The notes: generated by a model from the letters alone, not told the origin. Shown: positions 18,387 through 46,369, numbered from the stretch's first letter. The stretch: 64,000 nt of DNA from a candidate division CPR3 bacterium GWF2_35_18 (GCA_001771135.1 MESW01000007.1:3563-67562), one strand, 5' to 3'. Numbers and translations are program-made.

Positions 18387-18998
18387 ATGAAAGGGGAAGT
18401 TATGTCGCAAATAATAAATATTGAAGATCCTGAGCAAATACAACAAACTTACCCTGAATTTATTTTTCAAGAGATTCAGCTTAATAAAGATGAATATATC
18501 GTGAAAGCCTCTCGTAAACATTGGATTGTTTTCAGAAGTGCCTTTTTAGTGGGGTTTTTTATACCTTTTGTGACTATTTTTATGGCGATGTTTATTAGCA
18601 CACCATTTCTCCATATGCCAAAATTGATCGCTGATAAGTTGAGCATTGGTTTCATGTATGCTTCTCCGATATTTTTCTTTTTTGGTGTATTTATGTTTCT
18701 TTGGGAATTATTTCTTTGGTATCGTACATTCTATTTAGTGACAAGCCAAAGACTTATAAAGGTAGAACAACAAACTCTATTTAGCTCAAAAACACACCAA
18801 ATGTATCTTGACAAAGTTCAGGATGCAATTTGTAAGATATCTGGTTTCGAAGCTTTATTATATGGATATGGGGATATATCCATTCAAGGTTCATCAGAAA
18901 CAGCTCAAATAGAGTTTAAAAAAGTAGGGTATCCCAAAAAAATGCAAAAAATTATTGCTAGTGTGGCTGGTAAGGTTGTTAGGACTAATCAAGATTGA
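18387..18998 (+). CDS. Membrane protein with bacterial PH-like (YdbT/DUF304-type) domain
   Basis: Two TM helices (FLVGFFIPFVTIFMAMFI; IFFFFGVFMFLWELFLWY) flanking, then soluble beta-rich domain; architecture only. Confidence 0.4.
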   Translation: MKGEVMSQIINIEDPEQIQQTYPEFIFQEIQLNKDEYIVKASRKHWIVFRSAFLVGFFIPFVTIFMAMFISTPFLHMPKLIADKLSIGFMYASPIFFFFGVFMFLWELFLWYRTFYLVTSQRLIKVEQQTLFSSKTHQMYLDKVQDAICKISGFEALLYGYGDISIQGSSETAQIEFKKVGYPKKMQKIIASVAGKVVRTNQD

Positions 18999-20124: not shown

Positions 20125-20309
20125 GTTTGTGATTATATACCTAACATCTATTAGTTTGCAAAGATAAATATTGGATATTCAGGAGTTTTATGGTTTTTGA
20201 TTTATGAACTAAATTTACTAAAATATTCTAAGTTTTAGAATTTCGTTTAAAAAGTCTTCTTAAGCGGATTTTACTAATATATATATATACTGATTTCCTT
20301 TGGTAATTT

Positions 20310-20339
20310 AACGTAAATTCGAGTATAATCATTAATATT
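20310..20339 (+). promoter_or_regulatory. Putative sigma70-like promoter for solitary mreB (TTGGTA ... 18 nt ... TATAAT)
   Basis: Perfect -10 TATAAT at 20334..20339; weak -35. Confidence 0.35.
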
Positions 20340-20366: not shown

Positions 20367-21386
20367 ATGTTTCATTTTAACCTCGTTCGTCGTATTGGCA
20401 TAGACCTTGGAACAGCAAATTCTTTAGTTTTTATCCCAGGAGAAGGAATTGTTTTAAATGAACCGACGGTTGTTGCTATTACTCATGATGATAACAAAGT
20501 TGTAGCTGTCGGAAATGAGGCCAAAGAGATGCTTGGTCGTACTCCTGAGAACATCATTGCTTCTCGTCCTATGCGTGACGGCGTAATTGCTGATTATATG
20601 ATTATTGAGTCAATGTTACGGTATTTTATCAATAAGGTTATGGGTAAAGTTAAAATTACAAAACCTGAAGTAATGATTTGTGCTCCAGCAGGGGTAACTT
20701 CAGTTGAAAGAAGAGCAGTCTTAGATGCTACTTTATCTGCAGGAGCAAAAACAGCCTATTTAATTGATGAGTGTTTAGCTGCTGCAATTGGTGCAAGAAT
20801 GCCTATTGGAGATCCTTCAGGTAATTTTATAGCAGATATTGGAGGAGGAACAACGGAAGTGGCGATTATTTCTTTAGGAGGAATTGTTGTGAATAATACT
20901 GTAAGAGTTGGAGGAAACAAGCTAGATGAAGCCATTGCTTCATCTATTCGGAGAAAGTATAACTTAATTGTGGGTTATCAGATGTCCGAAAAGATTAAGA
21001 TTGAAATTGGAAGTGCGACTCACATGACTAAAGAGAAGAAAATGGAAATAAAAGGGCGAGACTCAGTAAACGGTCTTCCCAAAAGTATTACAATTACTTC
21101 TTCGGAAGTTACTGAAGCGTTGGCTTTACCTCTAAAAAGTATTGTGGGTGCAATTAAAACTGTTCTAGAAAATACTCCTCCGGAGCTTGCCTCCGATATT
21201 ATCGATAATGGTCTTGTGATGACAGGAGGAACCTCTTTACTTAGGAATATTGATCAACTTTTGACTCGCGAAACAGGAGTTCCTTGTTTAGTAGCTGATG
21301 ATCCCTTAAATTGTGTGGCTGTCGGAACAGGGATAGCTTTAGAAAACTTGGATCATTACAAACGTAACATTACCAGAAAAGGATAA
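20367..21386 (+). CDS. mreB: Actin-like MreB paralog (solitary, not linked to mreCD)
   Basis: RIGIDLGTANSLVF, actin ATPase fold motifs DIGGGTTEVAI, GGTSLLRNI. Confidence 0.85.
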   Translation: MFHFNLVRRIGIDLGTANSLVFIPGEGIVLNEPTVVAITHDDNKVVAVGNEAKEMLGRTPENIIASRPMRDGVIADYMIIESMLRYFINKVMGKVKITKPEVMICAPAGVTSVERRAVLDATLSAGAKTAYLIDECLAAAIGARMPIGDPSGNFIADIGGGTTEVAIISLGGIVVNNTVRVGGNKLDEAIASSIRRKYNLIVGYQMSEKIKIEIGSATHMTKEKKMEIKGRDSVNGLPKSITITSSEVTEALALPLKSIVGAIKTVLENTPPELASDIIDNGLVMTGGTSLLRNIDQLLTRETGVPCLVADDPLNCVAVGTGIALENLDHYKRNITRKG

Positions 21387-21393
21387 AAATAAT

Positions 21394-22512
21394 ATGCTGA
21401 TTGGTATTGATGCTAGCAAAATATTGATATCCAAAAAGACTGGGACAGAGAACTATTCAAGCTCTTTAATCAAAGCAATTTCCAAAATCGATAGAAAAAA
21501 CCAATATTTATTATATCTAAACTCTGATAAAAGAGTTAACCTATTGTCTCAAGAAAACTTTCAAGAAGTTCCATTTTCAGCAAAGAAGCTATGGACTCAG
21601 TATCATCTTGCAAAGGAATTATTTAAAAAAACTCCAGGTGTTCTTTTTGTTCCAGCTCATACTTTACCGGTTATTCGTCCCTCAAAATTAAAGACAGTCG
21701 TAACTATACATGATTTAGGTGCACAGTATCTGCCTCAATATCATCAGTTTCCACAAAGATTATATCTGAATAAAAGTACCGAATACGTATTAAAACATGC
21801 AGATCATATTATTGCTGTTTCTGAGGCGACAAAAAGGGAAATATTAAATAATTCTAGCAGAGATGATAAAACAGTGACAACAATTTATGAAGGGTATAAT
21901 GAGGAATATTTTAATTTTTTCAAGCTTAAATCTCAAAACTTAAAACTCAAGACCATATTAAATAAATATAATCTTAAAAAATCGTATCTTCTGTTTGTAG
22001 GAACAATTCAACCGCGAAAAAATCTATTGCGTTTGATTCAAGCTTTTGCTCAAGTAAATAACTCTGACTTGGATTTGGTTTTTGTAGGTAAAAAAGGTTG
22101 GTTATTCGAAGACATTCTAAAAGAACCACAAAAATTGGGAGTAGAAGAGAAAGTAAAGTTCTTAGATTATGTGCAGGATGTTGATTTGCCTTATTTATAT
22201 TATGGTGCTAAATGTTTTGTTTTTCCAAGTCTTTGTGAAGGATTTGGGATTCCTTTGCTTGAAGCAATGGCAGTAGGTTGTCCGATAATAACCTCTAATA
22301 TTTCGAGTATGCCAGAAATCGCAGGTAATGCGGCCATATTTGTTGATCCTTTTGAAGTAAAGGATATTAAATTAGGTATTGAAAAGATAATTTTCAATAC
22401 AAAACTATGTCAGGATATGGCAAAAAATGGTTTGCAAAGAGTAAAAAACTTTTCTTGGGAGAAAGCAGCTCAAGAAACAGTTAAAGTTTTTGAAAAAGTA
22501 GCCAATCAATAA
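21394..22512 (+). CDS. Glycosyltransferase family 4 (GT-B)
   Basis: C-terminal EX7E-type region FPSLCEGFGIPLLEAMAVGCPIITSNISSMPEIAG. Confidence 0.8.
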   Translation: MLIGIDASKILISKKTGTENYSSSLIKAISKIDRKNQYLLYLNSDKRVNLLSQENFQEVPFSAKKLWTQYHLAKELFKKTPGVLFVPAHTLPVIRPSKLKTVVTIHDLGAQYLPQYHQFPQRLYLNKSTEYVLKHADHIIAVSEATKREILNNSSRDDKTVTTIYEGYNEEYFNFFKLKSQNLKLKTILNKYNLKKSYLLFVGTIQPRKNLLRLIQAFAQVNNSDLDLVFVGKKGWLFEDILKEPQKLGVEEKVKFLDYVQDVDLPYLYYGAKCFVFPSLCEGFGIPLLEAMAVGCPIITSNISSMPEIAGNAAIFVDPFEVKDIKLGIEKIIFNTKLCQDMAKNGLQRVKNFSWEKAAQETVKVFEKVANQ

Positions 22513-22513
22513 A

Positions 22514-23251
22514 ATGAAAGAAACTATTTTAGGAATAAAAATTAGTCTGGAATCAGAACAAGAATTGATTCAAAGTATATCAGAGTATATCAATAGTGGT
22601 CAAAAAATCAGAATATTTACCCCAAATCCAGAGATGGTTATTGAAGCTCAGAGAGATAATGATTTTAAATTAATTTTAAATAGTGCCGAAATTACAATTC
22701 CGGATGGAAAAGGTCTCATTTGGGCCTCAAAAATACTTAATAAAAGATTGAAAAACACTATTCCGGGAACTGATCTTATGGAAAAAATATGCGCAGAAGC
22801 TTCTCGTAAGAACTGGACCATATTTTTATTAGGAGCAAGTAAGGGGATTGCAGATGAAACAAAAAGTATTTTAGAAGTAAGGTATCCAGGAATTAAAATT
22901 ATTGGATTTCTTGAAGGAAGTCCATTAGATGAAGATGATTTAAAAACTCAAAATAATATTTTAAAAATTATTGGTAAAAGAAAGATAGATTTGCTTTTTG
23001 TTGCTTATGGGGCTCCTAAACAGGAGAAATGGATTCATCGTAATATCAGTAGCTTGCCGGTTGCTGTTGCTATGGGAGTTGGGGGAGCCTTTAATTACAT
23101 ATCTGGTAATATAAGTAGAGCTCCAATATGGATGAGAAAGATTGGTCTTGAATGGTTTTATCGACTTATAACGGAACCATGGAGATGGAAAAGACAATTG
23201 AAATTAATTCGTTTTAGTTATTTAGTCTTCATAAATAGGATACAAAGTTAA
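22514..23251 (+). CDS. WecB/TagA/CpsF-family glycosyltransferase (GT26)
   Basis: 245 aa; ILGIKISLESEQELI..., PDGKGLIWASK, FLLGASKGIADE, WMRKIGLEWFYRL typical of GT26. Confidence 0.8.
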   Translation: MKETILGIKISLESEQELIQSISEYINSGQKIRIFTPNPEMVIEAQRDNDFKLILNSAEITIPDGKGLIWASKILNKRLKNTIPGTDLMEKICAEASRKNWTIFLLGASKGIADETKSILEVRYPGIKIIGFLEGSPLDEDDLKTQNNILKIIGKRKIDLLFVAYGAPKQEKWIHRNISSLPVAVAMGVGGAFNYISGNISRAPIWMRKIGLEWFYRLITEPWRWKRQLKLIRFSYLVFINRIQS

Positions 23252-23272
23252 TTTTTGATATAATATTTCATT

Positions 23273-24478
23273 ATGAGAATTCTTTATCTATATCAATTCC
23301 CTTTATACGGTAATGGTAGTGGTTCAAGCCTAAGAAATATTGCCGGAATTGTTGCTAAAGAACACAAGGTGGCTATCTTAGCTCCCGATGAAAGAAAACT
23401 ACCAAGGATAAAAGGATATACTGCTATACCTTCTCAAATTCCTGTTTTTGTGGGTCACCCTGAATTAAAAAAATCCAAAAAATTTAGTGAATTAAACCCT
23501 CAAGAGATATCAGATCTGTATTCTTATTATTATCAGCGTGTAATTGAAGCCGTTTCTGAATTTAAACCAAATTTTATTGACGTTCAACATGCCCATTTTT
23601 TAACATGGGTTGCTAGAGATATCTGTGCTATATATAATATTCCATTTTCTGTATATGTACATGGTAGCGATCTGCATGCGATTGAACTTGATAAAAGATA
23701 TCATGCTTTAACAAGAGATGCTTTAAAATGGGCAAAGAGAATCATTGTTAATAGTGGTTATACTAGGGAATGGTTGCTCAAACTTTTTCCAAATGAGTTT
23801 GATAGTAAGAGAAAAATTCGTACTATTGCTCCTGGAGGAGTGAATATTGATAATTTTCCGGAATTTATTTCATTAAAACATATAAATAGCAAATATAATC
23901 TAAATGGGAAAAACGTCGTTTTATTTACGGGAAGACTTACCAGTCAGAAAGGTACAAAATATCTTATTAAAGCAGCTCATCGTATTAAAGGTGAAGTGGT
24001 TATATTAGGAGACGGTCCAGAACAAGATAATTTGAAACAGCTAGTGGCTCAAAGAAAATTAACCAATGTTCATTTATTGGGATATGTAGGAAATGAACAT
24101 CGCCGAGAACTGAAAGAATGGTATTATCGAGCTGATGTTCTTGTTGCTCCTTCAGTTTGGGATGAACCTTTGGGTTTATCTATCATTGAATCAATGGCCG
24201 CCAAAACACCTGTCGTTGCTACCCGTAAAGGAGGAATTCCATCAGCGATTAAAGATAATTATAATGGAATATTAGTACGTTCCCGTAATAGTAATCAGAT
24301 TGCAGATGCTGTTAATAAGATATTATTAAATCCAGAACTAGGGCTTAAGATGGGAGAAAGAGCAAGAGAGACGGTAAAACAAAAATTCACAAGAGAAATC
24401 ATTGCGAGGAAATTTGTGAATATGTATGAAAAATTTTCATATACTTGGCCAAATAAAAATAATGGGAGAAAAAAATGA
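23273..24478 (+). CDS. Glycosyltransferase family 4
   Basis: VAPSVWDEPLGLSIIESMAAKTPVVATRKGGIPSAIKDNYNGILV. Confidence 0.75.
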   Translation: MRILYLYQFPLYGNGSGSSLRNIAGIVAKEHKVAILAPDERKLPRIKGYTAIPSQIPVFVGHPELKKSKKFSELNPQEISDLYSYYYQRVIEAVSEFKPNFIDVQHAHFLTWVARDICAIYNIPFSVYVHGSDLHAIELDKRYHALTRDALKWAKRIIVNSGYTREWLLKLFPNEFDSKRKIRTIAPGGVNIDNFPEFISLKHINSKYNLNGKNVVLFTGRLTSQKGTKYLIKAAHRIKGEVVILGDGPEQDNLKQLVAQRKLTNVHLLGYVGNEHRRELKEWYYRADVLVAPSVWDEPLGLSIIESMAAKTPVVATRKGGIPSAIKDNYNGILVRSRNSNQIADAVNKILLNPELGLKMGERARETVKQKFTREIIARKFVNMYEKFSYTWPNKNNGRKK

Positions 24479-25779
24479 TTGAGCCTCTTTATGGTCTTTC
24501 AAGTAAAGAAATCGTAACTTCTGCAGAAAGAGCTCAGCGAATTGAAACAGTTTTAAAGTCTCAACTTACAAAACAGACAAACGAATTTGTAGATCCTGCT
24601 CCTGTAGTTAAAGAAGGTAGCGAAGCTGATTTTTTAATAGTTTATGGTCAAGGTCCAGTCCTTCCAGGGAATTTAAGAGAGCATGACGATACTCAAGGAG
24701 ATGTAAATGTATATTGTCGTTTAAACGCTGTTGCAGCGGCGGCGATGTATCGTGAAGGATTGACGACAAAAGTAATATTAACAGGAGGGCGTACTGGTAG
24801 ACAAGAACTGAAATCAGAAGGAGAATTAATGAAAAACATAATGGTTCACGAATATGGAATCCCTGAGGAAGCTATTTTAGTTGAAGATAAAGCTGGAAAT
24901 ACTCTCCAAAATTATGCAAATAGTTTAGAAATGGAAGGTGGTATTAAAGAAGGTTCTCGAATAATGCATTTAGCTGCTCCTCATCATACAGGAAGAGTCC
25001 ATATGATGGCAAAAATGTATGATTTGGATGGACCAACTTTTAGCTCTGAACAGGTTCTACGACAAGTTTTTGATACTGCAATTAGAGGTGAAGACTATGA
25101 TACTAATTTCATAGGTTTTGATTCGAATACTGCCAGAAAAATAACTCAAAATATGCATATTTTATTTAATGCTGACGATAATCCTAATTTTTTTGCTCGG
25201 GCTACTGCTGAAAATCGATGGACAGAAGGGCTTATTCAAATGCCTGAGTACTGGATTATGCAAGCTGCCATGATTAACGATGAAAAACGTTTTATTAGAA
25301 TACTTCAGACTTTAAAAGATATTAAGATGGTTTTACCAGAATGTCAGCATCCTCTTGGTAAAGATCTTAATTATCAAGAAAATGTTATAGGTCCATTTTT
25401 ACAGAGGTGTGGAATTGATCTATCAGCGATTGATTTTAATAATCCTGAAGCTATTCATGTTTTAATGCAAAGAATGAGAGATGTCAAAAGAGATCTTTCT
25501 CCTCAGGTTTGGGATAGCATATACGGTTCAGAATATGCTAATTATGAAAATCCTGAAGAGTGGCTTCCCAGAATAATAGCAGATATCGACTTAGTAATTG
25601 CGGGAATAGAGGGAAAAGCAAAAGGGATTCACAGGCCTAATTTCTTAAGAGAATTACTCGTCCCTGCTGAAAATTGGCTTTCTGAAAGAGGTATAGAACT
25701 ACCAGATGAAGATAATATAAACAAAATAGATGAATTATTGATTTTAAAGAGATCTATTCAAGAAAAAATATCTAATTAA
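24475..25779 (+). CDS. DUF218 (SanA/YdcF/ElyC-like) domain protein with long C-terminal extension
   Basis: VILTGGRTGRQELKSEGELMKNIMVHEYGIPEEAILVEDKAGNTLQNYANS matches the DUF218 core; 4-nt overlap with upstream GT4. Confidence 0.55.
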   Translation: MIEPLYGLSSKEIVTSAERAQRIETVLKSQLTKQTNEFVDPAPVVKEGSEADFLIVYGQGPVLPGNLREHDDTQGDVNVYCRLNAVAAAAMYREGLTTKVILTGGRTGRQELKSEGELMKNIMVHEYGIPEEAILVEDKAGNTLQNYANSLEMEGGIKEGSRIMHLAAPHHTGRVHMMAKMYDLDGPTFSSEQVLRQVFDTAIRGEDYDTNFIGFDSNTARKITQNMHILFNADDNPNFFARATAENRWTEGLIQMPEYWIMQAAMINDEKRFIRILQTLKDIKMVLPECQHPLGKDLNYQENVIGPFLQRCGIDLSAIDFNNPEAIHVLMQRMRDVKRDLSPQVWDSIYGSEYANYENPEEWLPRIIADIDLVIAGIEGKAKGIHRPNFLRELLVPAENWLSERGIELPDEDNINKIDELLILKRSIQEKISN

Positions 25780-25788
25780 GGAGAAAAA

Positions 25789-26907
25789 ATGAGGATTGCG
25801 TTTGTTACAGGATTGAAAAGATCAACGACAAAAGATAGTCTTGGTGGTAGGAATCAGATAGTTTACAAATTGGTTGAAGGAATGGCAAAAAGGGGCCATC
25901 AAGTAACTTTTATTGGCACTGGTGATTCACAATTGCCAGCGGAAATTATCCCTATTGTCGACAAAGCTTTAATGTTTCAATCTCCTCAAGAAAATGATTT
26001 TTACTTCCATACAGCTTACCTATCAATGATGACAAAGAAGATGGCTGAAATGGCTAATCAGTTTGATATAATTGCCAATCACGTTTATCCGGAATTTCTT
26101 CCTTTACTTGTTGCAAATCAAATTCAGACTCCAATTGTGACAACGACTCATGCACAAGTGACTCCGTATCTTGCGAAAGCAATGTCAGGTTACAAAGATA
26201 GTTATTTTGTTTTTGTTTCAAATTCACATCGGGATTTAGCTCGAAAATATGCAGCTTTTCCCAATTCAAAAACTATTTATAATGGGATAGATGTGGATAA
26301 ATTCACTTTCTCAAACTCTGCAGAAGATCATCTATTATTCTTTGGAAGAATAAATTATTATAAAGATGAAACTGGGAAATTAGTTGATGCAAAAGGATGG
26401 AAAGTATCTCTTGATGTTGCAAAAGAAAGCGGAGAAAGTTTAGAGATAGCTGGTCCAGTATTAGCCGGTGAATTTGGATCAAACGCACAACAATTTTATG
26501 ACACAAATGTTTCACCATTTATTGATGGTGAAAAAATTAAATTTGTGTCCAAAATACAGGCTTCCGAACCGGTTGAATTTGAACAAAAAGTAAAATTACT
26601 AGGAAGAGCAAAAGCTTTACTCTTTCCAATTAATTGGGATGAGCCTTTCGGTTTAGTGATGGTTGAAGCTTTAGCTTGTGGAACCCCAGTGATTGGTTTC
26701 AACCGTGCTTCTGTTCCCGAAATCATTATTAATGGAAAAACGGGATTCATTGTAAACAATAGAGAAGAAATGATTAAAATTATACCAAAGATTAAAGATA
26801 TCAAAAGAGAAGATTGTCGTCAGAGAGCTTTTGACTTTACTACTGATAAAATGGTAAATAATTATATAGAATATTATGAAGAAATATATGCCCAAACTAA
26901 AAAATAA
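25789..26907 (+). CDS. Glycosyltransferase family 4
   Basis: FPINWDEPFGLVMVEALACGTPVIGFNRASVPEIIINGKTGFIV. Confidence 0.75.
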   Translation: MRIAFVTGLKRSTTKDSLGGRNQIVYKLVEGMAKRGHQVTFIGTGDSQLPAEIIPIVDKALMFQSPQENDFYFHTAYLSMMTKKMAEMANQFDIIANHVYPEFLPLLVANQIQTPIVTTTHAQVTPYLAKAMSGYKDSYFVFVSNSHRDLARKYAAFPNSKTIYNGIDVDKFTFSNSAEDHLLFFGRINYYKDETGKLVDAKGWKVSLDVAKESGESLEIAGPVLAGEFGSNAQQFYDTNVSPFIDGEKIKFVSKIQASEPVEFEQKVKLLGRAKALLFPINWDEPFGLVMVEALACGTPVIGFNRASVPEIIINGKTGFIVNNREEMIKIIPKIKDIKREDCRQRAFDFTTDKMVNNYIEYYEEIYAQTKK

Positions 26908-28021
26908 TAAGCTAAAAATTCTAATTTTAGCCCCTGTAATATATATGTCTCCGACTAAATTTGGAGATAAGATATATGCACCTAGAGATTATATCCTTAC
27001 TTTAGCAGAAGGTCTTAAGAAAAAAGGTCATGAAGTAATTCTTTTCAGTACTCCTGATTTGAAAACAGAAGTACCATTAATGGGAGGGGACTGGTATCCT
27101 TTGAAACACGATTTGATTAGAGATCGATATAAAACAAGAGAGCTTATTTCTGAATATTGGATGCAAAGTAGAACTTTAGTTCAAGATTATTATGAGGCTG
27201 ACATTATTGTAAAGGCGATAAAATATGCGAATGAAAATCAGGTAGACATTATTCACACCGATAGTTATTTAGTGCATTTTTTCCAATCCTTAACTGAAAT
27301 TCCAATTATTTATTTAATGCATGATCCTTTACCTACTGATGAAGCTATAGAATATTGGATATTAAAACGTTTTAAGGATCATAAATACATCTCTATAAGC
27401 AATTCTCAACGCAGAAGCGGTGATTTGCATATAAATTTTATTGATACTGTTTATCATGGTTTACCTTTAGAAAATTTCATATTTAACCCTAAAAGAGGAG
27501 AATCTTTAGCTTTTGTAGGTAGAGTAATAAAGGAAAAGGGTTTAGATAAAGCAATCGAAGTATCGAAAAAACTGAATATTCCCTTAAAACTTGCAACAAC
27601 TAATGATTATAAAGATTCCCAATATTATCAAGAAGAAATTGCTCCTATTATTGATAAAAGACTAGTGCAAACAATGGGATTTTTGGTCGGTAAAGAAAAG
27701 ATCGAATTCTATAATAAAGCAATGGCTTTACTTTTTCCGATCTCTTGGTCTGAACCATTTGGTTTAGTTATGATTGAAGCTATGGCTTGTGGAACTCCTG
27801 TGGTGGCTTTTGACTGTGGTTCAGTGAAAGAAGTGGTTAAAGATGGTGTAACTGGATATGTTGTTGATCCTCGAGAAGGGATAACTGGATTTATTGAAGC
27901 AGTGAAAAAAATTGATTTGATAGACAGAGTTAAGTGCCGGGAATATTTTGAGACTCATTTTACAGCAGAGATTATGGTGAATAATTATGAGAAATTATAT
28001 TCAAAAGTTCTTCAGAAATAA
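26876..28021 (+). CDS. Glycosyltransferase family 4
   Basis: FPISWSEPFGLVMIEAMACGTPVVAFDCGSVKEVVKDGVTGYVV; paralog of previous gene. Confidence 0.75.
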   Translation: MKKYMPKLKNNKLKILILAPVIYMSPTKFGDKIYAPRDYILTLAEGLKKKGHEVILFSTPDLKTEVPLMGGDWYPLKHDLIRDRYKTRELISEYWMQSRTLVQDYYEADIIVKAIKYANENQVDIIHTDSYLVHFFQSLTEIPIIYLMHDPLPTDEAIEYWILKRFKDHKYISISNSQRRSGDLHINFIDTVYHGLPLENFIFNPKRGESLAFVGRVIKEKGLDKAIEVSKKLNIPLKLATTNDYKDSQYYQEEIAPIIDKRLVQTMGFLVGKEKIEFYNKAMALLFPISWSEPFGLVMIEAMACGTPVVAFDCGSVKEVVKDGVTGYVVDPREGITGFIEAVKKIDLIDRVKCREYFETHFTAEIMVNNYEKLYSKVLQK

Positions 28022-28048
28022 ATATTTATCAGAGATGCACTAAATTCT

Positions 28049-29626
28049 ATGAATTTTTTTTCTAACCCTCCAGTTATTAGTATTAAAGATTATGTCTTAA
28101 AGGATATTATTTGGAAGAATCACGTTACAGGAGAATCCAAAAAGATAAAAAGATTTTTTAACGGATATGATAAAGGTCTTCTAAAGGCTAATTTATCTGA
28201 TAAGTATTGGGCTTTGATTATAAAAAACTGTGATTTTGTTAAAAAAGAGCTTGAAGGAAGGGGTGGATTTTTTTATAGTAATTTTCATATTCTCCCAGAA
28301 AATCGAAGTCAATTTGACTCTGTTTATCCGATATCAGACAACCCAATATCCTTTAAAACAGTATTTGTGAGTGGGTTTCTCTTTCCTCAAGATCAAATAA
28401 TAAACATTGAGGGTGGATTTTACATTAAAGGTGAGAAATCGCCTTCCTTGGAGGAACTAACTGAACAGCATATTCCACAAGAACATTATCCCACACTACT
28501 TTTTAATTTAGGTTATTACTATACCAAACAACTTCTCAATGAAATAGATTATGGGTATAATAAGGTAAGAAGAAGTAAACATTTAGATAAGGAAATATTA
28601 GAAAGTGATTGTTTACCTTTTTTAGGTGGTTCTGTATGGAAAAAATCTGACATATTAGTTGTTAATCCGCCTTTATTTAACAAGTCTGTGATACTTTTTA
28701 GCAAAGAAGGAAAGATATTGATAATTAAAAACTGGAAGCTAGAAGAAGGTTCTGTCGAAATTCTAGGGAAATTTTTATCTTGGAAGAAAGAAGATGTTAA
28801 CAACTTCAATTCAGATAGTGATATTCAGATTTTTACTCCTTTTATAGACAATAAAAATGCTTCATTATCGGAGAAGTATAAAAACTATAATGTTTTTGTT
28901 GGAAGTGGGAGAGTTAATTTCTTAATTATTTCCAAAGGAACTGGAAAGAATCCTGAATCATACATAGTGAAAATAAAGAAGGGAAAGATCTTGATGCCTT
29001 CGATGGGAATGGTAATTTCTTTAGATGAGAATTTCTTTACGCAAAATTTTAAAGGGAATTTTTCTGATTTCGATGAGAGTGGATTTATCAAATCAGAAAC
29101 TCCTCTTAAAGTTTATTTCAAAGTTGGTGTCCCTATAGATATGAATTCTTATGATATTTCCTTTGGTTATGGAGGTTTTTTACCTCTAGTGTTAAATGGA
29201 AATGATTTTACGGAATCTCCAGATGAACTAGAAAAGTTAATGTTTGACCAAGGATTTTTCCATCCATTTTCCAGGCAGTCTCAAGAAACTCCTATTGAAA
29301 AACCTTATGAAAGGGAACCACGCGCAGTTTTTGTCGTCACAGAAAATAGTGATAATAAAGAGGAATATGGATTTTTCTCATTCTCAGGTAGATATGAAAA
29401 CTCTATTGGAATAAGTCTTTTCGAAATAGTTCCACTTTTAAAACAAATATTAAAGACTAGAAAGATTAAATTTGTGATACACTTAGATAGTGGATCTGCG
29501 GTAAAATTAATGTATTTACAAAATAAGCAGAATGTTAGAATATTAAATTTAACCGCTTTGTCCATGCGTAGTTTTACTGGAGAATATACAGAAAATGTAT
29601 ATAACTTGATTAACTTTTCTGTTTAA
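28049..29626 (+). CDS. Hypothetical 525-aa soluble protein embedded in glycosyltransferase operon (no motif recognised)
   Basis: ORF track; same strand, 27-nt gap upstream and 7-nt gap downstream; no TM or signal peptide evident. Confidence 0.4.
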   Translation: MNFFSNPPVISIKDYVLKDIIWKNHVTGESKKIKRFFNGYDKGLLKANLSDKYWALIIKNCDFVKKELEGRGGFFYSNFHILPENRSQFDSVYPISDNPISFKTVFVSGFLFPQDQIINIEGGFYIKGEKSPSLEELTEQHIPQEHYPTLLFNLGYYYTKQLLNEIDYGYNKVRRSKHLDKEILESDCLPFLGGSVWKKSDILVVNPPLFNKSVILFSKEGKILIIKNWKLEEGSVEILGKFLSWKKEDVNNFNSDSDIQIFTPFIDNKNASLSEKYKNYNVFVGSGRVNFLIISKGTGKNPESYIVKIKKGKILMPSMGMVISLDENFFTQNFKGNFSDFDESGFIKSETPLKVYFKVGVPIDMNSYDISFGYGGFLPLVLNGNDFTESPDELEKLMFDQGFFHPFSRQSQETPIEKPYEREPRAVFVVTENSDNKEEYGFFSFSGRYENSIGISLFEIVPLLKQILKTRKIKFVIHLDSGSAVKLMYLQNKQNVRILNLTALSMRSFTGEYTENVYNLINFSV

Positions 29627-29633
29627 TATCTAA

Positions 29634-31193
29634 ATGCCTAACTCCAAAATTAAGAAATTAAAAATTTTATTTGTAACGTCCGAAGTTGCTCCTCTCTCAA
29701 AAGTGGGTGGACTAGCTGACGTCTGTTGGTCTTTACCGAGGGAGTTAATTAAACTAGGCCACGATGTTCGTATTTTTACTCCTAAGTATGGAAGTATTGA
29801 AGAGGAAAAATATAGCATCAAATATTATTTAAAAGGTTTGAAAGTTTCTACATCTAAAGAAGACATTATTTGTAACATAAAACAGTGTTTAATTCCTGGC
29901 AATATAAAGGTTTATTTGCTAGAAAACATGGAGTATTATGAAAAAAGAGCTAATGTTTATGGTTATTCTGATGATAGTAGACGTTGGTATCTATTATCAA
30001 AACTAGTGCTGGAATTTTTGAAAGCAGAAGATTGGACTCCAGATATTATTCACAATCATGATTGGATGACTGGATTTGCAAGCAACTTTTTAAGAACAGA
30101 ATACAAAAAAGATAAAAAATTAAATAAAATAGCTACACTATTTACAATACATAATATCGAGATGCAAGGTCAATTTAATTATTGGGACCAGAAAGAATCA
30201 GAGAAAGATGACGGTAAAAAAAATATTACAGATTTGTATGCAAAAGAAGTTATTGGTAGTAATGGTGTTAAAAGAGGTATTATTCACTCAGATATTGTTT
30301 CTTCAGTCTCTGAAAATTATACAAGAGAAATTATGACTCCAGAATATGGTGCAGGTTTGGATAAACTGATGAGAGAAGAAAGAATGAAGTTATTCGGAGT
30401 TATTAATGGGCTTGATTACAATGTTTTTAATCCTTCTACAGATCCAGATATTTGGGTAAATTATGATAGAAATAGTTTAGAAAAGAAAACCAAGAATAAA
30501 CTAAAATTTCAACAAGAGTTTGGATTAGATCAAGATCCAGATGTTCCTTTGCTTGGATTTGTCGGAAGGTTTACAAAGCAGAAAGGCTTAAGTTTAATAA
30601 AAGAGGTTCTTGAGATATTGATTAAAGATCTCCATTTCCAATTTGCGATAGTAGGAGGAAGTGGTGAACAGGAATATCAACAATATTTTTATGAACTAAT
30701 GAAAAAATATCCCCACAAAATAGGTGGTCATCTAATGGTAAGTAAAATTATCGGTCAGCAGATATATGCTGCATCTGATATTTTCTTATATCCGTCACTT
30801 TTTGAACCTTGTGGTTTAGCTCATCTAATAGCCATGAAGTATGGTAGTGTTCCAGTGGTTCATAAAACAGGAGGTCTTGCGGATACTGTTTTAGATTTTG
30901 ATCCAAATACATTCGAAGGAAATGGTTTTGTATTTGAAGATTTTAACCAAAGATCTTTTATGATTCAGATTGTTCGGGCTATTGAGAATTTTAAGCACAA
31001 AAATAGTTGGAAAAAATTGCAGAGAAAACTGATGGGATTAGATTTTTCATGGAAAAATTCAGCAATACAATATATTGATTTGTATAATAAAGCAATAGAG
31101 AGGCATAAAAGATGGTTGACTAAAGAAGGTTTAATCAAGGCAAGATTTCCAGAAGAAGTTTCTGGAATTCACACGATTGATCCTTCTCGATAA
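29634..31193 (+). CDS. Glycogen/starch-synthase-like glycosyltransferase (GT5, GlgA family)
   Basis: N-terminal KxGGL motif SKVGGLADVCWSLPREL; C-terminal HKTGGLADTV. Confidence 0.8.
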   Translation: MPNSKIKKLKILFVTSEVAPLSKVGGLADVCWSLPRELIKLGHDVRIFTPKYGSIEEEKYSIKYYLKGLKVSTSKEDIICNIKQCLIPGNIKVYLLENMEYYEKRANVYGYSDDSRRWYLLSKLVLEFLKAEDWTPDIIHNHDWMTGFASNFLRTEYKKDKKLNKIATLFTIHNIEMQGQFNYWDQKESEKDDGKKNITDLYAKEVIGSNGVKRGIIHSDIVSSVSENYTREIMTPEYGAGLDKLMREERMKLFGVINGLDYNVFNPSTDPDIWVNYDRNSLEKKTKNKLKFQQEFGLDQDPDVPLLGFVGRFTKQKGLSLIKEVLEILIKDLHFQFAIVGGSGEQEYQQYFYELMKKYPHKIGGHLMVSKIIGQQIYAASDIFLYPSLFEPCGLAHLIAMKYGSVPVVHKTGGLADTVLDFDPNTFEGNGFVFEDFNQRSFMIQIVRAIENFKHKNSWKKLQRKLMGLDFSWKNSAIQYIDLYNKAIERHKRWLTKEGLIKARFPEEVSGIHTIDPSR

Positions 31194-31254
31194 TCTAATG
31201 CTGGATTGTACATCCAGATAATGTATATTATTTTTAATAAATTAGGAGACGTAT

Positions 31255-32703
31255 GTGAAAGTTTTATTTGTGACTTCTGAGTGTTATCCTTTTATAAAAG
31301 TTGGAGGACTTGCAGATGTGGCTGGATCTTTGCCAAAAGCGATGAGCAGATTAGGTGTTGAAGTGACAATTGCGATGCCATATTATAAGAACATAGAGTT
31401 ATCTGAAAAATATATATCTAAAGTAGATGGAGAAATGACTTTTACTTTTGGAGATAAAGAAGAACATTTAAATCTTTATAGAACATTCTATCCAGGAACT
31501 CACCTTCCAGTATTATTATTCAGGAATGAGACTTATATTAAAGATGAAGTATATCCTAAAATACATGATAAGTCTTTAAGTCAATTCGTTTTTTTCTCCA
31601 GAGCAATTTTGAAATTTTTAAAAACAGGAGAGCTTAAGTATGATCTTTTACATCTTAATGATTGGCCTACGGCAATTATTGCGGGATTACTCAAAACAGA
31701 GTATAGGGTTCAACCCGTCTTAAGTCAACTTGCTACAATTCTTACAATACATAATTTAGGTCCTCAGGGTATAGCTAAACTTTCAATACTAGATAGTTTG
31801 GAGATAAATAGATATTCTTTAAAAACACTCGATTGGGACGCTCAGGATAAAAATATCGACTTACTTCTTCAAGGGATTGTTAATGCAGATTTGATTAACA
31901 CAGTTTCTCCAACCTATGCAAAAGAAATTATGACAAAGGAATATGGAGAAGGTTTGGATCAAGTCATGAAGTCTCGTGAGGGAAGAGTTTTTGGAGTTCT
32001 AAATGGAATTGATTATTCAGTTTTTAATCCTCAAACAGATTCAGCTATTCATTTCCGCTATGATGTTAATAATTGGGATGCAGGGAAAGCTCAGAATAAA
32101 TTATTTTTACAGAAAAAATTACATCTTAAAGAAGACGTAAAAATTCCTTTAATCGGAATGGTTACCCGTTTGAGCAATCAAAAAGGAATAGATCTTATCC
32201 TCGAAAAGATGGATGAAATTGTAAAAAAGAACATACAAGTTGTAATTTTAGGTACAGGAAGTGAGTCTTATGAAGCAAAACTTTCCAAGTTTAATGATAA
32301 ATATCCAGATATGGTGAGTATGATTTTAAAGTTTGATCAGTCTCTTTCTCGCCAAATTTTTGCAGGAACAGATATGTTTTTAGTTCCTTCGAAGTTTGAA
32401 CCGTGTGGATTGACACAACTTATTGCAATGAAATATGGGAGTATGCCAATTGTAAGAGCTACAGGAGGCCTTAAAGATACCGTTACGAAAGGAAAAACTG
32501 GTTTTGTTTTTGAGGAGTATTCAAGTAAGTCATTATTGCAGTCGATTGCAGATGCGGTAACGGTTTATAAAAATACTACAAAGTGGCGTGAACTTGTCCA
32601 GGAAGCAATGAGACAGGATTTTTCTTGGAACAACTCTGCTAAGGAATACTTAAAACTATATCAGAAAGCACTTAAATTTAAACAGGAAGAAAATTTTATC
32701 TAA
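31255..32703 (+). CDS. Second GlgA-family GT5 glycosyltransferase (GTG start, SD AGGAGA)
   Basis: IKVGGLADVAGSLPKAM; RATGGLKDTV; ~35-40 percent identity to upstream paralog by eye. Confidence 0.8.
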   Translation: MKVLFVTSECYPFIKVGGLADVAGSLPKAMSRLGVEVTIAMPYYKNIELSEKYISKVDGEMTFTFGDKEEHLNLYRTFYPGTHLPVLLFRNETYIKDEVYPKIHDKSLSQFVFFSRAILKFLKTGELKYDLLHLNDWPTAIIAGLLKTEYRVQPVLSQLATILTIHNLGPQGIAKLSILDSLEINRYSLKTLDWDAQDKNIDLLLQGIVNADLINTVSPTYAKEIMTKEYGEGLDQVMKSREGRVFGVLNGIDYSVFNPQTDSAIHFRYDVNNWDAGKAQNKLFLQKKLHLKEDVKIPLIGMVTRLSNQKGIDLILEKMDEIVKKNIQVVILGTGSESYEAKLSKFNDKYPDMVSMILKFDQSLSRQIFAGTDMFLVPSKFEPCGLTQLIAMKYGSMPIVRATGGLKDTVTKGKTGFVFEEYSSKSLLQSIADAVTVYKNTTKWRELVQEAMRQDFSWNNSAKEYLKLYQKALKFKQEENFI

Positions 32704-32719
32704 GTTAATGGAGTAAATT

Positions 32720-33529
32720 ATGGTTGATTATAGACAGAACAAGCTAAATAAAAAATGGATAATTGTTTCTCCAAAAAGAGCAAAAAGACCAGGAGAAAAT
32801 AAGAAGGAAGCGAAGCCAGTTTGCCCTTTTTGCTATGGACACGAATCGATGACTCCACCTGAAGTTTACCGTATTGGAGACGGAAATCCAGGTGAGTCAG
32901 GATGGAAAGTGAGGGTTGTTCCCAATAAGTACAAAATAACTGATATTCATGAGGTTATTATTCATCATCCTAATCATGATTTCGATTTTGAAGATTTACC
33001 AGAGGAACATGCTAATTTAGTTTTTGGGGTATATAAAAATAGATTTAATTTTCATAAAGATGAAGGACAAGTTGTAATCTTTAATAACTGTGGGAAAGAG
33101 GCTGCTGAGTCTCTAGAACATAATCACACTCAACTCGCAGTTGTTCCTGCGAATATACAATTAGACACTCCGGTTATTGGTGAGATAAATTTGGCTTATG
33201 AAGATGATCAGCTGCTTATTTCGTGTCCACGAGACTCAGAATGGCCGTATGAAGTTTGGTTTATACCCAAAAGAAGAGATCTGTGCTTTGGAGATATTAA
33301 CTCCGATGAAATAATGTCTTTCAGTCGTAATTTAAAAAAAGTTATTAATATCATTAAAAAGGAAGTCGGAAAATTTTCTTATAATTTTTATATTTACCCT
33401 TCTCAAGATTGGTATTTAAGATTGATTCCTCGGATTACAAATAGGGCAGGATTTGAATTAAGTACAGGGATTATGGTAAATACAAAGGATTCGCAGGAAG
33501 TTGTGAATTTATTAAAGCAGAATCTTTAA
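32720..33529 (+). CDS. Galactose-1-phosphate uridylyltransferase family (HIT superfamily) nucleotidyl-hexose transferase, short form
   Basis: WIIVSPKRAKRP (GalT W-x-x-VSP-x-RA-x-RP), zinc motif CPFCYGHE, active-site HNHTQ (HxHxQ). Confidence 0.75.
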   Translation: MVDYRQNKLNKKWIIVSPKRAKRPGENKKEAKPVCPFCYGHESMTPPEVYRIGDGNPGESGWKVRVVPNKYKITDIHEVIIHHPNHDFDFEDLPEEHANLVFGVYKNRFNFHKDEGQVVIFNNCGKEAAESLEHNHTQLAVVPANIQLDTPVIGEINLAYEDDQLLISCPRDSEWPYEVWFIPKRRDLCFGDINSDEIMSFSRNLKKVINIIKKEVGKFSYNFYIYPSQDWYLRLIPRITNRAGFELSTGIMVNTKDSQEVVNLLKQNL

Positions 33530-33766
33530 TTATAGATCTTCGTCAAAATTTTTCTTAGAAAATCCCTTTCCAATTATCCATAGGACTTGTTCTTTGGTGT
33601 AGCGGCGATCTCCTCGAGAATTGATGCGTATTGGAAGGAGTTTTCCTTTTTTTCCCCAGCGTTTAATTGTAATAGGGGATACTCGTAAGAATTTAGCAAC
33701 TTCTTTTACGGTCATAAGATCTGGTAAATGTGAGAATTCTCCTGGTTGTTTTTGGGAATCATCCAT
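33530..33766 (-). CDS. Excisionase-family helix-turn-helix DNA-binding protein (MerR-like HTH)
   Basis: LMTVKEVAKFLRVSPITIKRWGKKGKLLPIRINSRGDRRYTKEQV. Confidence 0.6.
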   Translation of the reverse strand: MDDSQKQPGEFSHLPDLMTVKEVAKFLRVSPITIKRWGKKGKLLPIRINSRGDRRYTKEQVLWIIGKGFSKKNFDEDL

Positions 33767-33884: not shown

Positions 33885-33918
33885 CAAAAAAGACCTTATT
33901 TTATTAAGGTCTTTTTTG
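33885..33918. terminator. Bidirectional intrinsic terminator between HTH gene and rplL (AAAAAAGACCTTA ... TAAGGTCTTTTTT)
   Basis: Inverted repeat flanked by A-run and T-run. Confidence 0.6.
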
Positions 33919-44998: not shown

Positions 44999-45015
44999 AT
45001 TTTCCATTTATTCAT

Positions 45016-46364: not shown

Positions 46365-46369
46365 ATATC

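Follow-up and report, generated by a model that had tools for sequence, protein, structure and literature searches.

The 64-kb window analysed here (64,000 nt, the whole stretch of DNA under study) comes from candidate division CPR3 bacterium GWF2_35_18, an uncultivated groundwater bacterium, and contains ten tightly packed plus-strand open reading frames (ORFs) between positions 21394 and 33529 (Table 1). In order, they encode a GT4 glycosyltransferase, a GT26 enzyme, a second GT4, a DUF218 protein, two further GT4 enzymes, a 525-aa protein, two GT5 enzymes and a GalT-like HIT enzyme. A first-pass annotation had described ten consecutive same-strand genes, and all ten were recovered; Pfam and NCBIfam scores together with sequence motifs confirmed its family list (GT4 four times, GT26, DUF218, GT5 twice and GalT-like HIT). 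None of the ten proteins contains a predicted transmembrane segment and all are predicted to be soluble. Base composition was uniform over the whole window and therefore gave no sign that the cluster is an imported island.

Table 1 Genes and sequence features of the locus, in window coordinates
Feature	Position	Strand	Basis or remark
PEGA-domain membrane protein, 379 aa	18985..20124	-	Pfam PEGA; divergent from mreB2
Promoter-like site TTGGTA-18-TATAAT	20300..20329	+	Ahead of mreB2; consensus scan, 10/12 matches; consensus match only
MreB paralogue (MreB2)	20367..21386	+	Pfam MreB_Mbl 454 bits
GT4 glycosyltransferase a	21394..22512	+	Glycos_transf_1 128 bits plus Glyco_transf_4
GT26 TagA/WecG-type glycosyltransferase	22514..23251	+	Pfam Glyco_tran_WecG 195 bits
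GT4 glycosyltransferase b	23273..24478	+	Pfam; conserved more widely than the other GT4 enzymes of the cassette
DUF218 protein, 434 aa, long C-terminal extension	24475..25779	+	DUF218 57 bits, residues 84-183
GT4 glycosyltransferase c	25789..26907	+	Pfam
GT4 glycosyltransferase d	26876..28021	+	Pfam; 32-nt overlap with GT4c
Divergent NAGPA/DUF2233-fold (phosphodiester-glycosidase-like) protein, 525 aa	28049..29626	+	No signal peptide
GlgA-type GT5 alpha-1,4-glucan synthase, paralogue a	29634..31193	+	TIGR02095 491 bits (cutoff 328)
GlgA-type GT5 alpha-1,4-glucan synthase, paralogue b	31255..32703	+	TIGR02095 509 bits (cutoff 328)
Compact GalT-branch HIT hexose-1-phosphate nucleotidyltransferase/NDP-glucose phosphorylase-like protein, 269 aa	32720..33529	+	CPFC and HNHTQ motifs
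HTH_17/MerR/BldC-like small DNA-binding protein, 78 aa	33530..33766	-	Convergent, abuts operon end
Terminator-like hairpin between HTH gene and rplL	33885..33918	+	14-bp stem, then T-rich tail

Gene spacing and boundaries of the operon

The nine junctions measure, in order, +1, +21, -4, +9, -32, +27, +7, +61 and +16 nt. The range given earlier (-32 to +61 nt) was correct, but six gaps had been counted as shorter than 10 nt or overlapping, where we found five of nine, or six once the 7-nt junction between mreB2 and the first GT4 gene is included. The mreB paralogue had rightly been placed immediately upstream. Because of this 7-nt gap, the promoter-like site ahead of mreB2 and the lack of any plus-strand terminator-like site with at least four G-C pairs upstream of 33885, the unit most likely consists of 11 genes running from mreB2, probably its first gene, to the GalT-like gene (20367-33529); these would be co-transcribed. 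A hairpin proposed in the 61-nt gap (CTGGAT-TGTAC-ATCCAG) did not hold up, folding no better than shuffled sequence (z 0.24). Intergenic distances are short all through the window.

MreB2 shares 49% identity with the canonical MreB (MreB1, 43925-44998), which is grouped with mreC, mreD and PBP2. In other CPR loci, the MreB genes adjacent to GT26 resemble MreB2 (62-65% identity) more than MreB1 (47-51%). The divergent PEGA protein has an N-terminal transmembrane anchor (segment at residues 11-34), and a divergent PEGA gene is also found upstream of MreB2 in locus L004 and in Levy-type loci, forming a conserved left flank. At the other end, the 78-aa HTH protein scored 41 bits with NCBIfam HTH_BldC, under its cutoff, and its gene occupies the same position in L004, L005, L006 and L089.

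Families of the encoded proteins

The GT26 protein, predicted to have no transmembrane segment, matched the solved structure of TagA (7mpk) over its full length (E 1.4e-55, residues 6-242 of 245). It scored 174 bits with TIGR00696 (cutoff 69) and remained below the TarA equivalog cutoff (159 bits vs 350). In Bacillus, the MreB-type cytoskeleton is associated with teichoic acid synthesis. Similarly to the TagA/MreB association of that organism, GT26 shares an operon with an MreB paralogue, a pairing conserved over lineages. Unlike the Bacillus wall teichoic acid system, where TagO and TagA act on the linkage unit, the window holds no TagO/WecA, TagB/F, TagGH or LCP gene.

No GT4 enzyme reached an NCBIfam equivalog cutoff. 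GT4b shared 44-51% identity with its full-length matches in GTDB Microgenomates-type loci (380 or more aligned residues), and its closest solved relatives were the generic GT4 Tll1590, alpha-maltose-1-phosphate synthase and TarM (E 1e-16 to 1e-20). Orthologues of GT4a were found in L004 and L029, and those of GT4c in Levy- and Roizman-type loci. The DUF218 protein is a variable member, not present in L004, for which only three long-form homologues were found; no transmembrane segment was predicted and its AF2 model was poor (pLDDT 57).

The 525-aa protein had been regarded as an orphan. Although no direct Pfam match was obtained, homologues exist in three related metagenome contigs (49-58% identity), its UniRef label is 'Phosphodiester glycosidase domain-containing protein' and its fold is known, that of NAGPA/DUF2233. 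The DGGGS motif, described as strictly invariant in NAGPA/DUF2233 (PMC13474241), is replaced by DSGSA. In contrast to NAGPA and bacterial DUF2233 proteins, it has an additional N-terminal region of about 140 residues and no signal peptide or transmembrane segment; owing to the latter, it is probably cytoplasmic. We infer an activity on a sugar-1-phosphate linkage; the protein itself is specific to this lineage.

Both GT5 proteins matched Pfam Glyco_transf_5 (230 and 206 bits) and contain the KVGGLADV and TGGL(A/K)DTV motifs; they share 38% identity. The GT5b gene has a GTG start and an AGGAGA ribosome-binding site. The match of GT5a to E. coli glycogen synthase (2qzs, E 8e-74) was full-length. 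Equivalents of K15, H161, R300, K305 and E377 of the E. coli enzyme are kept in both paralogues; Y355 is replaced by Phe in GT5b and by Val in GT5a, in whose lineage this position is I, V or P. Judged by these residues, both look like catalytically intact glycogen synthases.

With the classical glycogen pathway (GlgC-GlgA-GlgB, glgBXCAP-type operons) the CPR3 operon has in common GlgA-type GT5 enzymes, here two full-length ones that keep the catalytic residues of the E. coli synthase. Relatives of the locus have GH57 genes between their GT5 genes, and one also carries a phosphoglucomutase (PGM) gene. The GH57 family includes one type of branching enzyme. The CPR3 operon differs from that pathway in several respects: no glgC, glgB, glgP or glgX lies in the operon or the window, a GalT-branch HIT gene adjoins glgA, the two GlgA paralogues are diverged and one has no aromatic residue at the Y355 position, and the pair shares its operon with an MreB paralogue, a TagA-like gene and GT4 genes.

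The best solved relative of the GalT-like HIT protein was Arabidopsis At5g18200 (1z84, E 2.8e-26; E. coli GalT, E 4e-5). We take At5g18200 to be a characterised ADP-glucose phosphorylase, and McCoy et al. reportedly presented it as such in 2006. It is mentioned as an ADP-glucose phosphorylase in a passage of a preprint (bioRxiv 10.64898/2026.09.13.751320). Both half-domains of At5g18200 (PDB 1z84/2h39) were matched, and the Cys-x-x-Cys and H-x-H-x-Q motifs are shared; the CPR3 protein is shorter (269 aa vs 351), with loops deleted. C35, C38, H77, H134, H136 and Q138 were invariant across 30 homologues. There are at least 1237 homologues, the few organism-named ones being CPR/Microgenomates-type; source labels are DUF4931, 'UDPglucose--hexose-1-phosphate uridylyltransferase' or hypothetical.

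Outside the cluster, the scan covered all ORFs of 100 aa or more, except those nested on the opposite strand within an annotated gene. Among these ORFs of the window we found no glgB/C/P/X, GH57 or PGM gene and no priming phosphoglycosyltransferase, flippase, ABC exporter or LCP ligase. For the cluster, the first pass had noted no glgB, glgC or glgP and no obvious flippase or initiating phosphoglycosyltransferase.

Conserved ends and a variable middle in related loci

We compared 83 related loci chosen for carrying the GalT-like gene; by this choice, they do not give the frequency of the other genes without it. Gene order was kept in three related metagenome contigs, contrary to the scattering in relatives that would have spoken against the first-pass reading. 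The recurring layout was a minus-strand PEGA gene followed by MreB2, GT26, variable glycosyltransferases, a slot holding GT5, GT20 or nothing, and the GalT-like gene, and this frame recurs over Microgenomates-type CPR genomes. The 5' end is fixed (divergent PEGA, MreB paralogue, TagA-type GT26), as is the 3' end (compact GalT/ADP-glucose-phosphorylase-like HIT enzyme), and the soluble glycosyltransferases of the middle vary by lineage. The CPR3 operon is a local version of this cassette, which is common to Microgenomates-type CPR bacteria. O-antigen and capsule-type loci likewise have conserved end genes with lineage-dependent glycosyltransferases in between (GT4, GT2, GT5 and GT20 in the cassette). 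Unlike those loci, the cassette locus has no polymerase, flippase or ABC transporter, and it is bounded by conserved genes for an MreB paralogue and TagA at one end and for a HIT nucleotidyltransferase at the other.

The genes could be ordinary neighbours. The GT5 proteins would then be classical glycogen synthases supplied by a GlgC whose gene lies elsewhere, GT26 and the GT4 enzymes would make an unrelated wall polymer, and the GalT-like protein would be a Leloir-type, salvage or ADP-glucose-degrading enzyme, all brought together by compact genomes and inherited synteny and not by shared function. Public annotation already reads 'glycogen synthase' and 'galactose-1-phosphate uridylyltransferase', and CPR genomes are gene-dense, as the spacing across the window illustrates. 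An rplKAJL-nusG block is kept beside the GalT-like gene in 15-17 loci, indicating strong inherited synteny in the region; in Roizman-type genomes a pth gene intervenes and the GT4 genes are encoded on the opposite strand, so that linkage may be inherited synteny and not function. The modules can also occur apart. However, the GalT-like gene keeps the 3' end of the cassette despite changing internal glycosyltransferases and flanks; the downstream flanks vary between the rplL cluster and ATP synthase, so it is not the surroundings that keep the block together. The same-strand gene directly 5' of it repeatedly encodes an NDP-glucose-dependent transferase, GT5 in 12 loci and GT20/OtsA-like in 3, and these two families are unrelated. 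Moreover, the protein is far from meeting the NCBIfam galT equivalog models (29 bits vs 102; 41 vs 448). Neither galK nor galE was found in the window; their absence across the 83 loci is less certain because most recurrent neighbour families are named by synteny only or unnamed. We consider this explanation unlikely.

Of the 46 loci with enough flank, 33 have GT4 homologues in the 8 kb upstream of the GalT-like gene, and a PGM gene lies 3' of it in one locus only, L078. The nucleotide-sugar role first suggested for this enzyme is supported by such context, namely the kinship to At5g18200, the GT5/GT20 neighbours and the L078 phosphoglucomutase.

A single pathway or two modules

The GT26/GT4 and GT5 enzymes had been proposed to build one glycoconjugate containing alpha-glucan. 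In such a pathway, GT26 and GT4 would assemble an adaptor on a polyprenyl-diphosphate primer, the GT5 enzymes would add alpha-1,4-glucan using donor supplied by the GalT-like enzyme, and MreB2 would guide the export of the lipid-linked glucan and its attachment to the envelope. The tight, single-stranded and co-linear operon would fit this proposal. In several lineages with differing flanks, GT5 lies within the variable region between MreB2-GT26 and the GalT-like gene (PEGA(-), MreB2-GT26-GT4n-GT5-GalT-like in L012, L067 and L080); in L067 the GT4c and GT5b genes overlap, which would also fit a single pathway, and L029 has GT4a-GT26 directly before GT5a (GT4a-GT26-GT5a-GH57-GH57-GT5b-GalT-like-rplL). 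The Aeromonas system offers a precedent, with a GlgA-type enzyme that makes a cell-surface, lipid-carrier-dependent alpha-glucan and accepts UDP-glucose as well as ADP-glucose; it relies on a GlgC-type pyrophosphorylase and the LPS ligase of a diderm, whereas the CPR3 operon has neither GlgC nor ligase.

The comparison speaks somewhat against the proposal. In L078, GT5a-GH57-GH57-GT5b-GalT-like-PGM stands without GT26, GT4 or MreB2, downstream of unrelated opposite-strand genes. Conversely, MreB2-GT26-(GT4)-GalT-like occurs without GT5 in L043, L063 and L084 (in L063 and L084 as a minimal MreB2-GT26-GalT-like), and in L013, L038 and L082 a GT20 gene (trehalose-phosphate-synthase type) occupies the GT5 slot. 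The exporter, ligase and priming enzyme absent from the window were not found either among the neighbour families that recur in five or more loci of the set of 83 (roughly half of these families are identified by synteny only or unnamed), and the GT5 proteins resemble ordinary, self-sufficient glycogen synthases. A single pathway therefore stays a somewhat unlikely reading.

Collectively, the comparative data (L078 against L043, L063 and L084) favour two separable modules, one for an envelope glycan and one for an alpha-glucan, sharing the HIT enzyme within an 11-gene operon of the Microgenomates-type cassette; we hold this explanation with middling confidence. In the first module, GT26 and the four GT4 enzymes would extend a polyprenyl-diphosphate-linked primer at the cytoplasmic face of the membrane, with MreB2 positioning this machinery; the primer would be made, exported and attached by genes elsewhere. 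In the second, GT5a and GT5b would polymerise a glycogen-like alpha-1,4-glucan from NDP-glucose.

Acting through a His136-nucleotidyl intermediate, the HIT enzyme may link glucose-1-phosphate to the pool of NDP-glucose (or NDP-hexose) consumed by the transferases of the operon, as an NDP-glucose:phosphate phosphorylase or an NDP-hexose:hexose-1-phosphate exchanger. Its gene sits where a GlgC/GalU-type pyrophosphorylase gene normally would. Were ADP + Glc-1-P -> ADP-Glc + Pi its sole reaction, the combination with GlgA would amount to a net reverse glycogen phosphorylase, which is unfavourable at cellular phosphate levels. This casts doubt on a simple replacement of GlgC, and GlgC/GalU may be encoded elsewhere in the genome. 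In a combination that we did not find described, the operon would bring together an envelope-glycan module, two glycogen synthases and a small nucleotide-sugar enzyme, all of known families.

Organisation of the operon and its surroundings

Ten plus-strand ORFs were found at exactly the coordinates of the ten-gene operon proposed in the first-pass annotation (21394-33529). Their junctions measure +1, +21, -4, +9, -32, +27, +7, +61 and +16 nt, and Pfam and NCBIfam searches bore out the proposed families: four GT4 proteins, GT26, DUF218, two GT5 proteins and a GalT-like protein. None of the ten proteins contained a membrane-compatible hydrophobic segment. Between the mreB paralogue described as lying immediately upstream and the first GT4 gene there are 7 nt. 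A promoter-like site (consensus match) lies ahead of this paralogue, and the first plus-strand terminator-like site with at least 4 G-C pairs was found at 33885, past a small convergent HTH gene. Given the 7-nt gap and the positions of these two sites, we therefore treated 20367-33529 as one 11-gene unit. The window also contains a canonical mreB-mreC-mreD-PBP2 cluster; the genome thus has two MreB paralogues, and the one in the operon, MreB2, shares 49% identity with the canonical MreB1.

The hairpin reported in the 61-nt gap between GT5a and GT5b did not hold up: its 6-bp stem folded no better than shuffled sequences (z 0.24), and it was rejected as a regulatory feature. Rfam searches over the window returned only tRNAs and the L10 leader, none of them inside the operon. 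An imported island was rejected, as GC content and skew are uniform throughout the window. The remainder of the window is housekeeping (tRNA synthetases, argG/argH, comEA/comEC/dprA), with an rplKAJL-nusG block directly downstream of the operon. The reported lack of glgB, glgC, glgP, a flippase and a priming phosphoglycosyltransferase was confirmed among the scanned ORFs, and the same scan, which took in all ORFs from 100 aa upwards that lie outside the cluster, except opposite-strand ORFs nested inside annotated genes, recognised no glgX, GH57, phosphoglucomutase, ABC exporter or LCP ligase.

Features of the window discussed in the text
Feature	Position	Strand	Assignment
GT4 genes	21394, 23273, 25789, 26876	+	Pfam/NCBIfam
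GT26 (WecG/TagA)	22514	+	Pfam/NCBIfam
DUF218	24475	+	Pfam/NCBIfam
525-aa protein	28049	+	no Pfam/NCBIfam family
GT5 pair (GT5a, GT5b)	29634, 31255	+	each scores over the cutoff of TIGR02095 ('glycogen/starch synthase, ADP-glucose type')
GalT-like HIT, 269 aa	32720	+	CPFC (residues 35-38) and HNHTQ (residues 134-138) motifs
78-aa gene	33530-33766	-	HTH_17/MerR/BldC-like
mreB-mreC-mreD-PBP2	43925-48358		canonical cluster
159-aa cytidylyl/adenylyltransferase	57941-58420		nearest RfaE/HldE domain II
117-aa ORF, then 787-aa ATPase	37509-40222		ATPase TrwB/TraG/HerA-like
Ribosomal protein S2, 309 aa	54785-55714		C-terminal segment matches PF03118
Two thymidylate-kinase-family genes	16833-17456 and 51547-52686		
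Several ORFs, 197-355 aa	800-3716 (-), 40224-40817 (-), 18387-18998 (+)		no Pfam match

At each of the four CPR3-lineage loci the convergent 78-aa HTH gene directly adjoins the stop codon of the GalT-like gene, and it may encode a local regulator. Elsewhere in the window, ribosomal protein S2 has a C-terminal segment that scores above the cutoff for the C-terminal domain of RNA polymerase alpha (27 bits). A pair of the same type as the 117-aa ORF and the ATPase gene lies 3' of secE-nusG in L004 and L006, two metagenome contigs of the same lineage; the larger gene bears the annotation DUF8128 there. The second thymidylate-kinase-family protein (379 aa) is extended at its N-terminus by about 150 residues that match no family. 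A 203-aa ORF upstream of the PEGA-domain gene that flanks mreB2 has 2-3 predicted transmembrane segments and is conserved in L004, with a weak bPH_2 annotation there.

Family assignments of the encoded proteins

Each component falls into a known family, and public annotation already has names for most of them, including 'Glycogen synthase', 'Galactose-1-phosphate uridylyltransferase' and 'Phosphodiester glycosidase domain-containing protein'.

The GalT-like protein did not reach the GalT equivalog cutoffs (TIGR00209, 29 bits vs 102; NF008724, 41 vs 448) and passed Pfam GalP_UDP_transf marginally (24.6 vs 22.1). Its H-x-H-x-Q motif and Cys/His zinc ligands place it in the GalT branch of HIT proteins: C35, C38, H77, H134, H136 and Q138 were invariant in 30 homologues, and the alignment to 1z84 extends over its residues 25-346 in three segments, with both half-domains present. 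The nearest solved relative was Arabidopsis At5g18200 (E 2.8e-26), true GalTs being much further away. We take At5g18200 to be a characterised ADP-glucose phosphorylase, which interconverts ADP-glucose plus phosphate and glucose-1-phosphate plus ADP. On this similarity and the genomic context, an ADP-glucose phosphorylase-type activity is a candidate function. The family comprises more than 1200 proteins labelled DUF4931 or 'GalT'; most are nameless as to organism, the others being assigned to Roizman-, Woyke-, Levy- or Gottesmanbacteria or just to Patescibacteria. A further ADP-sugar route could be provided by the 159-aa adenylyltransferase-like protein, which scored 118 bits (cutoff 181.5) against RfaE/HldE domain II, a heptose-1-phosphate adenylyltransferase whose product is an ADP-sugar. 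LPS synthesis would not be expected in this organism, as CPR bacteria are presumably monoderm.

Both GT5 proteins exceeded the TIGR02095 cutoff of 328 (491 and 509 bits) and fell short of the equivalog models (for example NF001898, 482 and 504 bits vs 603). They share 38% identity, and each of them aligns with the whole of E. coli glycogen synthase (E about 1e-74). Alignments to 2qzs/3d1j indicated that both paralogues keep the K-x-G-G-L motif and the equivalents of K15, H161, R300, K305 and E377, which we take to be catalytic or substrate-binding residues of the E. coli enzyme. The position of Y355, presumably the aromatic residue that stacks on adenine, is occupied by Phe in GT5b and by Val in GT5a. 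Phe or Tyr occurs here in the GT5b-type proteins of all lineages, as against Ile, Val or Pro in those of the GT5a type (window, L004-L006, and the more distant loci L029 and L078). This difference may reflect another nucleotide-sugar donor or a non-canonical role of GT5a. With their catalytic residues intact, and with GH57 and phosphoglucomutase genes as neighbours in relatives, the GT5 proteins likely synthesise alpha-1,4-glucan.

GT26 is a family-level member (PF03808, 195 bits; TIGR00696, 174 bits vs a cutoff of 69) and aligned with the solved TagA 7mpk across residues 6-242 (E 1.4e-55). It did not reach the cutoff of the TarA/TagA equivalog (NF041710, 159 bits vs 350), whose activity is the transfer of ManNAc to GlcNAc-PP-undecaprenol. 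The TagA-like gene was the only component of a wall teichoic acid system in the 64 kb; TagO/WecA, TagB/F, TagGH and LCP ligase were absent from it, and none of them was recognised in the gene families that recur as neighbours at the 83 loci compared below. No GT4 protein reached an NCBIfam equivalog cutoff and their solved relatives are generic; they are left without a donor or acceptor assignment. The DUF218 protein scored 57 bits (gathering threshold 27.6) over residues 84-183; unlike SanA/ElyC, it has no transmembrane segment. It had three homologues only, no solved sequence relative, and an AF2 model with a pLDDT of 57; its C-terminal 250 residues carry no assignment.

The 525-aa protein had been called an orphan, a label that no longer applies. 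Eight close homologues were found among 5.8 billion proteins, and the AlphaFold model built from them (pLDDT 77, pTM 0.81) matched the DUF2233/NAGPA fold. A direct comparison with PF09992 gave no Pfam or NCBIfam match at E <= 0.01; a profile search collected 184 relatives, and 8 of the 10 scanned reached the Pfam NAGPA cutoff. Membership of NAGPA/DUF2233 is thus supported by fold and transitive homology. The DGGGS substrate-recognition motif of NAGPA is reported to be strictly invariant and essential (PMC13474241). In the window family the aligned column reads DSGSA, the Asp being kept and the glycines not; the wider relatives mostly have DGG[AGS][SAG], and Asp alone is kept throughout. No signal peptide or transmembrane segment was detected, and we therefore consider the protein to be a divergent member of the phosphodiester-glycosidase superfamily that is probably cytoplasmic. 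The most distant of the close homologues (31-34% identity) lie in L001 (10001-11590), L002 (10001-11569) and L003, 3' of SMC and a 271-aa gene and beside GT2 and PIG-L (deacetylase) genes of the opposite strand; neither GT5 nor a GalT-like gene occurs in their vicinity. The 271-aa gene was considered as a second GalT-like gene and rejected for lack of similarity. Diphthamide-synthase fragments and DUF483 on these contigs hint at a non-CPR, possibly archaeal host.

A recurring cassette around the GalT-like gene

The comparison with relatives supported a conserved gene order. Three same-lineage metagenome contigs (L004-L006) keep the order GT4, NAGPA-like, GT5a, GT5b, GalT-like, HTH, rplL; their NAGPA-like homologues are 49-58% identical to the window protein, and DUF218 and one GT4 are optional. 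The window proteins were also mapped onto 80 GTDB loci with a GalT-like gene, and all neighbouring ORFs were clustered. A recurring cassette was observed in which a PEGA-domain gene on the opposite strand is followed by MreB2, GT26, a variable set of GT4 or GT2 genes, then GT5, GT20 or nothing, and finally the GalT-like gene.

Gene arrangements at loci of relatives (GalTl, GalT-like gene)
Arrangement	Loci	Remark
MreB2-GT26-GT4-GT4-GT5-GalTl	L012, L067, L080	
MreB2-GT26-GT4-GT20-GalTl	L013, L038, L082	GT20 by Pfam, 421 bits
MreB2-GT26-GT4x3-GalTl	L043	
MreB2-GT26-GalTl	L063, L084	
GT4a-GT26-GT5a-GH57-GH57-GT5b-GalTl-rplL	L029	
GT5a-GH57-GH57-GT5b-GalTl-phosphoglucomutase	L078	unrelated opposite-strand genes upstream
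GH57-GT5b-GalTl	L017	fragment

Of these loci, L029, L078 and L017 weigh most in the interpretation. The cassette MreB genes are orthologues of MreB2 and not of MreB1 (62-65% vs 47-51% identity). On the downstream side the cassette is flanked by the rplL block in some loci and by ATP synthase in others, so its cohesion is not owed to the genes around it. In Roizman-type genomes, GT4 genes lie upstream on the opposite strand, with or without GT5 or GT20. The gene immediately before the GalT-like gene is GT5 in 12 loci and GT20 in 3, in a set of 83 loci chosen for carrying the GalT-like gene, which shows its companions and not the frequency of other genes without it. GT20, of the OtsA/trehalose-6-phosphate-synthase type, was seen in GT5's slot in L013, L038 and L082, and also in L015, L021, L024, L035 and L077; this suggests that several NDP-glucose-dependent enzymes draw on the GalT-like one. 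A phosphoglucomutase gene adjoins the GalT-like gene at one locus only. The GH57 proteins of L029 (Pfam GH57, 136 and 124 bits) were not called branching enzymes, the equivalog match being confined to about 70 residues. A non-glycosyltransferase context was observed in L036, L037, L045, L048, L049, L058, L061, L062 and L079, where a CTP_transf_like-DUF359 fusion, often preceded by transaldolase, lies directly 5' of the GalT-like gene.

Possible roles of the cassette

Each module occurs without the other (GT5 alone in L078; MreB2-GT26 without GT5 in L043, L063 and L084), both share the GalT-like gene, and this gene is repeatedly preceded by NDP-glucose-dependent transferases of unrelated families. 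The most economical reading is therefore that two modules share one nucleotide-sugar enzyme, to which we give about an even chance. In the envelope-glycan module, the TagA-type GT26 and the GT4 enzymes would act on a lipid-linked primer made elsewhere and would be organised by MreB2; GT5a and GT5b would form an alpha-glucan module, and the HIT enzyme would couple glucose-1-phosphate to the NDP-glucose pool. Every enzymatic role is here deduced from family membership and context.

The first-pass annotation had instead proposed a single pathway to an alpha-glucan-containing glycoconjugate. There is a precedent in Aeromonas, where a GlgA-made glucan is attached by WaaL (PMC3341381); however, the window contains no exporter or ligase, and none was recognised in the families that recur as neighbours at the 83 loci. 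We regard this proposal as less likely than the two-module reading. That the genes are simply ordinary neighbours seems slightly less likely still.

Feeding GlgA by ADP + Glc-1-P -> ADP-Glc + Pi alone would, in thermodynamic terms, amount to glycogen phosphorylase run in reverse, which is unfavourable in cells. The HIT enzyme may therefore be an NDP-hexose exchanger or a salvage enzyme, and GlgC/GalU may exist elsewhere. A bolder hypothesis, which we consider quite improbable, is that in Microgenomates-type CPR a compact GalT-branch HIT enzyme, and not GlgC/GalU, makes NDP-glucose for GlgA-type, OtsA-type and GT4 enzymes; in the CPR3 lineage a wall-anchored alpha-glucan would arise when the GlgA pair elongates a lipid-linked primer built by the TagA and GT4 enzymes, the dedicated MreB paralogue would guide its placement, and the NAGPA-fold enzyme would act in the cytoplasm to edit a sugar-1-phosphate linkage in the intermediate.

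None of the papers returned by literature searches describes this gene cluster, the conserved cassette architecture, the dedicated MreB paralogue, or a GalT-like enzyme in the pyrophosphorylase's place beside GlgA-type or OtsA-type enzymes. The accessible part of a 2024 alpha-glucan review contains neither 'ADP-glucose phosphorylase' nor 'Candidate Phyla' (PMC11046441).

The cassette is a concrete, testable unit, with an MreB paralogue and a TagA-like gene at one end, a GalT-like HIT gene at the other and interchangeable glucosyltransferases between, and it ties together cell-shape machinery, envelope glycan synthesis and the synthesis of a glucose polymer or trehalose. To our knowledge, no Microgenomates-type CPR bacterium has been cultivated, and their envelopes and carbon storage are known from gene lists only. 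If GlgC is encoded elsewhere and the HIT protein is a salvage enzyme, this would be an ordinary polysaccharide operon of unusual composition. If the HIT enzyme does stand in for GlgC/GalU, it would open a new way into NDP-glucose metabolism for organisms of minimal genome size and would give a function to the DUF4931/'GalT' family.
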